Shown here: positions 7,596 to 48,499 of the stretch, piece after piece
Position numbering within the stretch: position 1 is the stretch's first letter
Layout: each line of letters begins with the position of its first letter
Source: Octopus sinensis
Taxonomy: Eukaryota
DNA length: 64,000 nt
Direction: 5' to 3'
Assembly: GCF_006345805.1 (NCBI RefSeq)
Contig: NC_043000.1
Coordinates: 100,998,001 to 101,062,000 of the forward strand
Translations under genes and position numbers: made by a program
Notes under the pieces: generated by a model
What the model was told of the DNA's origin: nothing
Database searches by the model: none
What the model saw: only the letters and a program-made list of their open reading frames with translations

Positions 7596-10149
7596 TATTA
7601 TTACTATTATTATTAAGATGGTGAGCTGGCAGATTTGTTAGAATGCTTGACAAAATGCGTAGTGTCATTTTGACCATCTTTATGTTCTGAGTTCAAAGTC
7701 TGGGGTTAGCTTTGCCTTTCATCATATATCAGGGTTGATAAAATAAGTACCCGTTGTATATTGGAGTCGTACATCTCTGTTTGTTAGTAGTTCAGTGAAA
7801 AAAACCAATAAAATATGTAGCTGACTTAAAAAAACTGTAAGTAATGCAGTTGATTCATTCATGTAAAATTCTCCAGGATGGCAAAACAAATATATAAAAG
7901 ATACATATCTGTGTGTGTGAATGAGTATGTAGATATGTATGAATGTATGTATGTATCTTTCTGTTTACCTAACTATCCATCCATCCATCCATCCATCCAT
8001 CCATCCATCCATCCATCCATCCACCCACCCACCCACCCACCCAACCATCCATCATCCATCCATCCATCCATCCATCCATCCACCCACCCACCCACCCACC
8101 CACCCACCCATCCATCCATCCATCCATCCATCCATCTATCCATCTATCTATCTATCTATCTATCTATCTATCTATCTATCATATTGCTCTATACTCAGCT
8201 AACATTTTGTTCTGAAGCATACATATATTGAGTTCTTTACTGGGCTATTGGTCTCACAATGCTAAAGCAAATTACACACACACATTCATTATGTGTGTGT
8301 ATGTGTTGCATATATATATATACACACACACATACATACATCATATACATACACAACCTAGCATGCATCTGCACATATACAAACTAATGTCTTCATATTC
8401 ATATATGCATATGGATTCATACACACACACACACACACACACACACATTCCTGTATGTGTACACTATTATATGACCTATAGATATATGTACAAAAATGAT
8501 AAATATATAAATAGATCATATGCAAAATGCTTAAATTATGAATATATATCAAATGAATAAATATATGAATATAAAACCACTTAAAAGCTTAATCACTATA
8601 TAAAGAAATGAAAATAGGTTATAAATAATGGAAAAAATTAAAAGAATCATTATAAATGCATTCATACATAAATGTTAAAAAGCAGAAGATTTCCATAAAT
8701 GTTGTATAATATTTGTATAGCAAATAATGAGTATAACATGGAATTATAAGAATATAAAAACATAAAGACACACACATTCACATGCATGCACACACACATG
8801 CATGTGCACACATGCACACATACATGCATATAGATATGTGTGTGTGTGTGTGTGTGTGTGTCTGTGTACAAATATTTAAGTCCTTACTATATATATACAT
8901 GTGTGTGTGTATATATAAACTCCGTGTATGCAATGGGTTCAGGCATGCATGTGTGGTAAGAAGTTTCTTTTTCATCCACATGGTTCCAAGTTCAGTCCCA
9001 CTGTGTGGCATTGCACCTTGGGTAAGTCTTATCTACGATAGCACTGGGCCAACCAAAGCCTTGTGAATGGATCTGAGAGACAGAAACTGGAAGAAACCAA
9101 CTGAGTTATATGATAAATACAATATACTGGCAGTTGGGATTTAGCCAAACCATCCAGTGATGGAGTAGTCACCATGGACGAGCTTTAATTCTAAGTGAAA
9201 CTAGACCAGTTCTGTGATCTTGCTCACTGTGGAGCAGTTAGCTCCCCTGTCAGTGCATAGATATGCTGATGATGAGGAGAATATAAAGGAAAATGCATTA
9301 TACACTCAACCCAGTGAATGTGTTATTCTGTTTCCTATACCACATCGTTTTGGATTCAAGTCCTCTGTGTGGTACTATTACCAGATGTCTATTAATATAG
9401 CCACCTGTTGCAGCAATGTTTTGTGAGAAATTTTGGTAGTCATAAAGTAAATAGAAGCTGTCACATGCATGTGTGTGTGTTGTGTTGTATGTGTGTGTGT
9501 GTGTGTGTGTGTGTGTGTGGTGTCCATGCATGTGTATTTATGGGTATGTATTGGCATGTGTTAGTGTCTGTCTGTGTATATTTATGTGCATCCATGTGTG
9601 TGCAAGTGTGTATTTGTGTATGTGTGTGTGTGTGTGTGTATTTGTGTGTGTGTGCATGTGTGTGTAAGTGCAATTATGTGCATGAGCTAGTGTGTGTATG
9701 TGTGCGTTTACTTCCACATGACTTGGCAGTGACACTGCTTTGGTTGTGGTAATGTTTGTTTATGTCCCCCATAAACAAACTGAACCACACAGAGATTTGA
9801 TGTGCAAACAGCGGTGGTAGTGGCAGTGGGGTTGGTAGTGGTGGTGATAATGCCAGTGGTGCTAGAGGTGGGGATAGGGACAGTGCTGTTGATGGCGGTG
9901 GTTTGCTATTGGTGTATTTCTTAAATTTTTCAACTCTAGATCATCCTAGATCCATCAGATCAATGATCTGTTTGTTTGTCCTGGCTACATACATACATAC
10001 ATACATACATACATACATACATACATACATACATACATACATACATACATACATACATACATACATACATACATACATACATACATACATACATACATAC
10101 ATACATACATATATTCATGCATGCCTATGTGGCATGATGTTGTTGCTAT

Positions 10150-10710
10150 AACAATTTACAATGCCATCCAAAAAAAGACTGTCCTGAAATAAACTTAGAA
10201 AATCCCTCTCTTATGGAATACATTCATAAACACCAACTCAAGGAATACTGGTGGAATATTCCCATCAAAACTTCTGTTAAATATAAACATAACAAGCCAG
10301 ATATTATTGTAGGAGACACAGGGGCAAAGCTATGTGCCATCATAGAGGTCAGCTGCCCCACAGATATAAATATCTCTTTGAAAATCAAAAAAAAAGAGGA
10401 TATCTATGGACAACTGTTTTGAAACCTCCAGCTTCTATATCCAGACTATGAATTCATATTCATAATTAGAGCACTACATTTTGTTAGTACATGCTTAAAG
10501 GAGAATCTGGATAAACTGGGATTTTCATAAAGAAAAATCGACCAGCTAATTTGTACATTACATGTGTAATCTGTAAGTGGAACAATAAAAATATGCAAGA
10601 CGTTTCTCAAGTTCCAAATGTGAATTTGTCTGTGTTAACTACATCCCAAAGACAGAACCTTGTAGCTTTTTTGGAAACCAGCTCCCTCCTCAGTGGAAGA
10701 TTTATAATAA
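10150..10710 (+). mobile_element. 3' remnant of a REL-endonuclease non-LTR retrotransposon (R4/Dong/NeSL-like)
   Basis: EYWWNIPIKT..HNKPDIIV.D....C.IIEVSCP.D.NI..K...K..IY (PD..D/E endonuclease), then a short UTR ending tataataat. Confidence 0.75.
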
Positions 10711-47700: not shown

Positions 47701-48499
47701 AGGCTGATTACCCTGATGAGTGCTTAGATGATATTGAAATATGATATGGTAAGACTTCATATGAAGTTAAACTTTTACTGACTCAGAGACAAATAGGTAA
47801 AAATAGGTAAGATGAATGTATTACAAATAGTACCAAAGTATTTTTAGGGCAGATTAGTTCATTAAACTCATGATGAGAAAAATAATCTGTGATTTAATTC
47901 TATTTACAAGAGTCTGTAATCTTTTGATGAGAAAATATTTCAAATTTAAGCTAAGAAGTATAAAAGGAATTCAGTATGTATAGTATAATCTAAGGTGGAG
48001 CGGGGTACTCAGATACAGAAAGAAATAAGAACCAATAAAAAAGTACAATAAAAAAGAGCAATAACTTAAATCAATAAATTGATAGGAGAGAATTAAAATG
48101 CTAGAAAATAGTTAAAATACTAAGATAGCTAAATGCATCGTCTTGAAGAATTATTTAGAATACCCAAAATACCAACTAATTTAAAACCTTTAAAAGCAAG
48201 TGAAAAGCTTGGGATATTAATGTAAACCTAATATTGATTTCAAATTTTGGCACAAGGTCAGCAATTTCAGAACTGGGGTAAGTCCTCAACTAGTACTTAA
48301 TTTATCAACCTTGGAAGAGTGAAAGGTAAAGTTGACCATGGTGAAATTTGAACTCAGAATGTGAAGATGAATGAAATGCTACTAAGCATTTTGCCTTCTG
48401 TGCTAGCAATTCTACCAGCTCACCACCTTATATGTAAACCTAATGTTAATTAAGAGAATAAAAAATGGATAAAAAAATAGCTGTAATATTCTTTTCTAC

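Follow-up and report, generated by a model that had tools for sequence, protein, structure and literature searches.

The window analysed here is a stretch of 64,000 nucleotides from Octopus sinensis (NCBI RefSeq assembly GCF_006345805.1, contig NC_043000.1, positions 100,998,001 to 101,062,000 of the forward strand; coordinates below count from its first letter), in a microsatellite-rich genome of 2.72 Gb. The original prediction had placed nine hammerhead-like ribozyme motifs in it, near 9.17, 10.75, 16.15, 23.83, 34.23, 36.32, 37.18, 37.63 and 47.70 kb. Using as test the CUGANGA and GAAA boxes, an NUH site and three helices with helix I open, we recognize type I hammerhead sequence at seven of the nine, belonging to six repeat families (A to F). 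Very probably these seven are multi-copy hammerhead repeats, two of the families being pseudo-long terminal repeats (pLTRs) of young Penelope-like elements (PLEs) that abut (TA)n tracts, and they were likely scattered by truncated retrotransposition, not placed for a host role. The features at the seven sites are as follows.

37574-37823, minus strand: family A, 5′-truncated pLTR of a young PLE, Hydra-type by its motifs, 99.6% identical to the pLTR of the full-length element L035
37641-37714, minus strand: family A intact type I hammerhead, with a perfect CUGAAGA...GAAA-CACGUG-UA core, 55-nt helix II and palindromic helix III
34224-34308, plus strand: family C short pLTR-like insertion between (TA)n tracts, assigned by exact-pattern matches and 3′ ends
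34241-34270, plus strand: family C hammerhead, complete fold, CCGACGA (U4C) core
16094-19237, minus strand: family D, 5′-truncated young PLE, Neptune-type by its motifs, inserted in (TA)n, with Pfam RVT_1 and GIY-YIG, 98.9% identical to full-length L206
16160-16193, minus strand: family D hammerhead, with UUGAUAA (U3-A8) core, 5-bp helix II, CAUG palindrome, GUU site and weak helix I
23801-23974, minus strand: family B copy, hammerhead at 23835-23911 with 58-nt helix II, core decayed by G8A
36273-36447, plus strand: second family B copy, core decayed by a 2-nt loss and GAAA>GACA
9108-9261, plus strand: old family E copy, hammerhead remnant at 9169-9217, decayed core, no TA at the 3′ end
10771-10835, both strands: family F inverted pair of 5′ halves, CUGAUGA on each strand

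All type I features are present at 37.63, where the 3′ end abuts (TA)n directly, and, with known core variants, at 16.15 (U3-A8) and 34.23 (U4C), and these three sites keep the family-typical full core. Cleavage is predicted after 37641 (minus strand), 16160 (minus) and 34270 (plus), respectively. At 9.17, 23.83 and 36.32 the same features are found in the family and not in the window copy, whose core is decayed, while at 10.75 half a motif remains, so that four of the seven genuine copies lack a full core. The inverted pair at 10.75 is without the GAAA/helix III half of family F and is thus not a ribozyme, its apparent GAAU-AUAUG being flank. Helix III, proposed to be palindromic at most sites, is so at 37.63 (CACGUG) and 16.15 (CAUG), but at 34.23 it is a CUC-A-GAG hairpin and the CUAG at 9.17 is one arm of a hairpin (CUAG-A-CUAG in relatives). 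Likewise, the sequences are indeed several unrelated multi-copy families but six rather than about seven, since the 23.83 and 36.32 sites belong to one family (84% alike over 177 nt). Two sites were rejected: that at 37.18 (37185-37230, plus strand) is a hairpin in an old AT-rich repeat, with a GAAA box at that place in 0 of 11 relatives and no helix III, and that at 47.70 (47700-47760, plus strand) is a chance motif at the junction of two unrelated repeats, present in 0 of 9 relatives and without a TA flank.

Copy numbers were counted by exact-pattern search of the genome with reversed patterns as control. Family A gave 3,413 exact 20-mer matches (control 0), and the upstream core was readable in 27 of 30 loci, 22 with CUGAAGA and one with CUGAUGA. 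One locus, L035, is full-length (pLTR, open reading frame [ORF], pLTR), its hammerheads being separated by 3,650 bp; the other long loci consist mostly of inverted pairs whose hammerheads face outward, and 22 of the first 30 loci form 11 minus-then-plus inverted pairs. A query with its reverse transcriptase (RT) returned 8,261 candidates, and the 150 that were scored are 86-100% identical, several lying in stop-free frames of 876-923 aa; family A is therefore young. Its ORF encodes RT and GIY-YIG endonuclease (EN), with a DKT motif, no Cys pair inside GIY-YIG, no CCHH in the EN and, at the EN end, CxxC and CxH around conserved E and N. It shares with the published Hydra clade, in the parts of Craig et al. 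(2021; PMC8557442) compared, the DKT motif, a C-terminal GIY-YIG without internal CxxC, CxxC..E and CxH, a pLTR hammerhead, (TA)n targets and inverted 5′-truncated copies. It differs in its length (3.65 kb and about 880-900 aa, against generally <3 kb for published Hydra elements [PMC8557442] and about 700 aa for homologues), low-complexity insertions adding about 180 aa to the protein. Unlike most homologues, both family A proteins examined (L273, L274) lack the CxCX5C linker, with one Cys left, and read RWL for RWK; CxCX5C is present in 105 and RWK in 108 of 120 homologues. Moreover, family A has a 55-nt helix II and palindromic helix III where the Hydra rows of PMC8557442 File S2 have a loop II of 3-10 nt and a hairpin helix III. 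On these motifs family A is Hydra-related and derived, not a typical Hydra member. Other long-helix-II subfamilies (L176/L214, L253, L271) lie 3′ of A-related ORFs. The family A pLTR occurs in assembled contigs of 20 of 21 runs, presumed to be RNA, and contigs from four presumed-RNA runs cover the L035 pLTR and much of the ORF with unreadable ends; we draw no inference from either.

Family D (536 exact pattern matches, control 0; 848 candidates, the best at 98-99%) appears from its motifs to be a Neptune-type PLE. The window copy holds RT and GIY-YIG in frameshifted pieces (17099-19243) together with the 3′ untranslated region (UTR) and pLTR. Two elements, L206 and L207, are full-length units of 4.7 kb whose hammerheads are spaced 4.7 kb apart, and the L206 translation reads DKG, a CX4CxxC linker and CxxC inside the GIY-YIG nuclease; the Neptune marks given by Craig et al. 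are DKG, a CX2-5CxxC linker and two Cys between GIY and YIG (PMC8557442). The U3-A8 core, CAUG and GUU are identical in 15 of the 15 closest loci, the window's own included, and A8 is found in 100 of the 100 matches listed, of 536. Both A and D thus show what characterizes endonuclease-bearing (EN+) PLEs, namely RT and C-terminal GIY-YIG between hammerhead pLTRs, tandem or inverted truncated copies and a tail. A second Neptune-type family (L189, L294), 56-62% identical to D, has a UUGAAAA (U3-A8) core and a CCGG palindrome, and suggests that U3-A8 is common to the Neptune-type clade in this genome. Two further observations concern these elements. The family D 3′ UTR/pLTR in the window (16549-16900) carries 58-nt imperfect repeats with GATGACGTC cores, possibly an internal promoter, and a Neptune-type element at L291:611-3626 is spread over overlapping frames of 367 aa (basic) and 668 aa, being either a frameshifted copy or a two-ORF layout.

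Consistent with the proposed enrichment next to (TA)n, the 3′ end is flush with (TA)n in 29 of 30 family A loci (19 insertions), 19 of 25 family C loci and 14 of 15 family D loci, against 4-5% at random places. Family A has two fixed 3′ ends, 17 short and 13 long among the 30 loci, about 56-70 or 218-224 nt past the predicted cut, the longer running up to the ORF start; those of family C lie about 35-42 or 104-109 nt past it. In a genome sample of 100 evenly spaced 10-kb pieces (999,900 bases, ~1 Mb), (TA)4 occurs no more than 260 nt downstream of every one of the 13 intact motifs, compared with 21% of random places. Family A appears, from the sequences, to target TA strictly without the CxCX5C linker motif.

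The remaining families could be characterized less fully. Family B (456 exact matches, control 0) has a readable upstream core in 17 of 25 loci, 11 CUGAAGA and one CUGAUGA; one locus (L208) is a direct partial tandem, and a family B 'upstream' query pursued as an ORF lead proved to be an inverted downstream tail. In family C (1,668 exact matches, control 2) 16 of the 20 readable upstream cores among 25 loci are CCGAYGA, and position 4 is C in 1,480 exact matches versus U in 131, making U4C the family norm; the U4 copies would fit CpG decay. The direct family C pairs L203 and L204 were set aside as local duplications. Families E and F have 215 and 46 candidates respectively. Family E relatives read, column by column, CUGAUGA/GAAA/CUAG-A-CUAG/UA with a 6-bp helix I, CUGANGA being kept in three of nine. 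For B, C, E and F no master ORF could be linked, and a PLE origin is argued from their architecture: B, C and F form inverted stubs with fixed ends, there are TA flanks, and helices I and III of the family C hammerhead are much like those of Hydra-2_Amil (PMC8557442, in the part compared).

We then asked how often such motifs arise by chance. The type I descriptor in its first form found one canonical core in the window (37641-37714, minus strand) and one-mismatch matches at 34241 (plus) and 23911 (minus); the intact descriptor, which also allows U3-A8 and U4C cores and was tuned on the window itself, found three (37.63, 34.23, 16.15) versus none in each of 20 shuffles. In the genome sample it found 13 intact motifs (11 insertions, two of them inverted pairs) versus none after shuffling, so that the comparison with shuffled sequence came out as the original prediction required, as did clustering, the matches grouping into multi-copy families with hundreds to thousands of exact matches and reversed controls near zero. 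One-mismatch matches do occur in shuffled sequence (5 per Mb), and the relaxed-descriptor matches in the window at 43344, 14743 and 43602 are of the kind that also arises in shuffles. The genome total extrapolates to ~35,000 intact cores with a wide interval of about 19,000-60,000, and exact-match counts show no chromosomal strand bias. An Rfam scan of the window gave no hammerhead family among the 150 of 187 matches listed, which were microsatellite-driven miRNA only, none at gathering score.

The commonest form of these predicted ribozymes has an unusually long helix II. In nine of the 13 sampled intact motifs the two boxes are separated by 42-61 nt. Exact matches number 7,628 (control 0) for a pattern with a 50-62-nt gap and 4,057 (control 31) for a looser one with a gap of 8-26 nt. 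In the A clade, helix II is an 11-12-bp stem followed by an internal loop and a distal hairpin. In 19 A-clade sequences chosen to span subfamilies, RNAalifold returned an 11-bp helix II with six pairs changed on both sides. Of the helix II pairs, seven of 12 change on both sides, and in the full fold nine of 24 pairs covary with 88% of cells paired; the covariation score of 0.259 compares with 0.166 in shuffled alignments (0/500) and 0.07-0.10 in slid controls. The distal hairpin is conserved, without two-sided changes. The covariation shows selection on A-clade helix II structure. Further long-helix-II families (L173, L256, L287, L288, L289, L309, L333; 42-62 nt) were noted that have no obvious sequence kinship to A, B or F.

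These data can be brought together in the following scheme. The element would be transcribed through its pLTR, its GIY-YIG endonuclease would nick a (TA)n tract, and reverse transcription would begin downstream of the hammerhead at either of two fixed positions, which is why nearly every new copy would carry the motif. Early termination and template inversion would then produce the pLTR stubs, single or inverted. For PAc, the Poseidon element of Anolis, in vitro work has shown that RT can start at two internal sites downstream of the hammerhead, which gives a 'tail' (Frangieh et al., 2024; PMC11167929); the two fixed ends of A and C show the same pattern. PAc is alike also in its AT-rich targets and protein-assisted cleavage; the tails here, known from sequence, are about 40 nt (D), 67 nt (C) and 155 nt (A), and that of PAc 30-40 nt (PMC11167929). 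The likely substrate of the ribozyme is the RNA of its own element, which it would process as a dimer or with element protein; very little activity is predicted for lone copies whose helix III is palindromic. Small PLE hammerheads reportedly cleave as dimers, according to a 2017 paper. Minimal PLE hammerheads have shown no cleavage as single motifs and weak cleavage as dimers (Cervera and De la Pena, 2014; PMC4209133). The extended A-clade helix II would likely provide a tertiary or protein contact that gates cleavage.

Several points weigh against this scheme or limit the evidence for it. No isolated motif folds better than its shuffles (z -1.7 to +0.7) and no minimum free energy structure of an isolated motif is the full hammerhead, while one of the covariation controls ignores the relatedness of the sequences. 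No master RT/GIY-YIG ORF was tied to B, C, E or F among the fetched loci, where RT/EN matches nearby were off-strand or split off by a microsatellite. As to (TA)n ends, the D loci counted were picked as closest to the window copy and the A and C loci include inverted arms (hence 30 A loci for 19 insertions); family B has a microsatellite end in only seven of 25 loci (four TA, three CA/TG, under a strict rule; any-simple-repeat background 8.7%), and the window family E copy has none of TA. Finally, PAc hammerhead mutants still inserted in vitro (PMC11167929).

Other explanations must be set against truncated PLE retrotransposition. That the motifs are chance matches in AT-rich, repeat-rich DNA is true of 37.18 and 47.70, and one-mismatch matches do arise in shuffles, but the exact-match counts (3,413, 456, 1,668, 536 and 7,628 against reversed controls of 0, 0, 2, 0 and 0), the 13 intact motifs against none after shuffling and the A-clade covariation refute it for families A-F, and we give it practically no weight. 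It is very unlikely, too, that the window motifs are non-LTR retrozymes (tandem, non-coding and circular-RNA-forming) instead of PLE ends. Retrozymes are reported to be PLE derivatives (bioRxiv 2026.07.22.740005, in the part consulted), the fetched loci yielded no ORF for B, C, E and F, and the genome does hold a ~557-bp tandem non-coding family with one hammerhead per unit and a TA flank; however, hammerhead-bearing non-coding units in head-to-tail order occur at no window site, A and D are linked to RT/EN ORFs, and the C and F stubs are inverted, not tandem, partial tandems like that of family B locus L208 being also made by PLEs. The proposal that families of PLEs or retrozymes target microsatellites therefore stands for its PLE part, with the link to PLEs shown for A and D and ends at (TA)n for A, D and C, and not for tandem retrozymes in the window. 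The tandem family itself (L353, L354, L355; G000:C1:29568500-29573600; 256500-259500; 4790500-4793500) forms direct and inverted arrays that end at (TA)n, with units of about 540-560 bp, a CGUACG palindrome and a GUU site; it predominates among the first 100 short-spacer matches, is absent from the window and, from its sequence, looks like a true non-LTR retrozyme.

A role for the scattered copies in cleaving host introns or UTRs and shaping RNA turnover would draw on the abundance of intact cores (about 13 per Mb, ~35,000 genome-wide by extrapolation) and on the hairpin helix III of family C, which could work as a monomer. Against it, most window copies are decaying (four of seven without a full core), a palindromic helix III requires a partner (PMC4209133), U4C reduces activity in vitro (PMC3088659), and no host gene was identified in the window, none of the 97 frames scanned (of 299 candidates) lying above the Pfam cutoff, a scan that short exons would escape; we regard such a role as unlikely. 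Somewhat less so, but still improbable, is that the window is a special hotspot for hammerhead-bearing insertions. It holds three intact motifs versus 0.83 expected (P=0.05), five versus 1.28 with one mismatch allowed (P=0.01), and seven A-F copies by homology versus three in the flanks and five in the 1-Mb sample, a count biased by the families having been chosen from the window. The descriptor, too, was derived from the window, which was itself picked for the feature; 120 kb of flanks contain no intact motif, and window plus flanks have 16 per Mb versus 13 genome-wide. The high local density originally proposed is thus weakly supported, the excess in the window being modest, about 3-4-fold, and uncertain.

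Much of this system is known. Hammerheads in PLE pLTRs at (TA)n have already been reported in Octopus: Craig et al. list Hydra-1_Obim of Octopus bimaculoides with a hammerhead and (TA)n preference (PMC8557442), so that the suggestion of an under-described system does not hold. The U3-A8 core of family D is a variant described in Schistosoma PLEs, and the PLEs of that study also have a palindromic helix III and occur as solo or inverted copies with spacings of 100-700 bp (PMC4209133). Non-LTR retrozymes can likewise bring type I hammerheads to very high copy numbers, with 126,247 counted in axolotl and about 5,000 in mussel (PMC7229834). They are, however, tandem non-coding units (PMC7229834; bioRxiv 2026.07.22.740005), whereas in the window the sites are pLTR stubs, standing alone or inverted. 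The U4C change has been described in a viroid, which stays infectious although activity in vitro is reduced (PMC3088659). What appears from sequence to be new is the long-helix-II design, the U4C family and linker-less TA targeting, U3-A8 being already known. The main text of PMC4209133, in the parts consulted, has helix II of up to 7-8 bp, with no 40-60-nt extension and no U4C family. Craig et al. searched cores with 7-17-nt spacers, with eight 'half-core' cases at 35-50 nt; the nearest long-loop precedent in the part compared comes from Selaginella, in two PLE-X1 motifs that have loops of 29-35 nt and are flagged as deviating (PMC8557442). A search of the Craig et al. 2021 supplement text for six short motifs (of A, B, C, E, F and the L176 subfamily) gave no match, although line breaks could mask one. 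Neither a 42-62-nt helix II and a U4C-majority family nor TA targeting without the Hydra linker zinc motif was found in the open-access papers searched, a search outside which lie Repbase and subscription journals and, for the long-helix and U4C forms, the PMC4209133 supplementary alignments.

A bolder proposal, which we offer tentatively and hold to be possible but doubtful, is that the long-helix-II hammerhead is an undescribed subclass that makes up most intact ribozymes here (tens of thousands, in several lineages) and that standard descriptors miss, its extension being functional, for instance as an RT docking site that switches cleavage on. The Naiad 'half-core' PLEs (35-50-nt spacing) might then carry one, and (TA)n targeting would need no linker zinc motif. 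A descriptor limited to short spacers would overlook the long-helix form, so that ribozymes in such genomes may be undercounted. The PAc hammerhead was dispensable for insertion in vitro and is nevertheless conserved (PMC11167929). Young families with near-intact ORFs and three naturally occurring designs (long helix II, U3-A8, U4C) exist side by side in the present genome, a ready set for probing the ribozyme's role and protein assistance. Family A is also a natural test of the linker zinc motif as a (TA)n targeting determinant, the linker motif having been associated with targeting by Craig et al. (PMC8557442).

The window contains traces of other elements as well. At 13900-15050 (plus strand) lies a heavily decayed Hydra-type PLE ORF remnant, 31-55% identical to family A and homologues, with no linked hammerhead, and at 29233-29429 an unexplained 25-nt tandem array of about 6.5 copies with a GGGGCCCC core. 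At 10130-10640 (plus strand) is a decayed C-terminal restriction-enzyme-like (REL-type) endonuclease region that resembles, by eye, the end of a 1,303-aa retroelement ORF in L292. A 99-aa frame at 54440-54739 (minus strand) with HPPYSPDIAPSD and no Pfam match is presumably the C-terminus of a mariner-type transposase, and a 318-aa frame at 35283-36239 (minus strand), with RVT_1 and a PHD-like Cys cluster, is what we take to be a likely fragment of an RTE-type long interspersed nuclear element (LINE).

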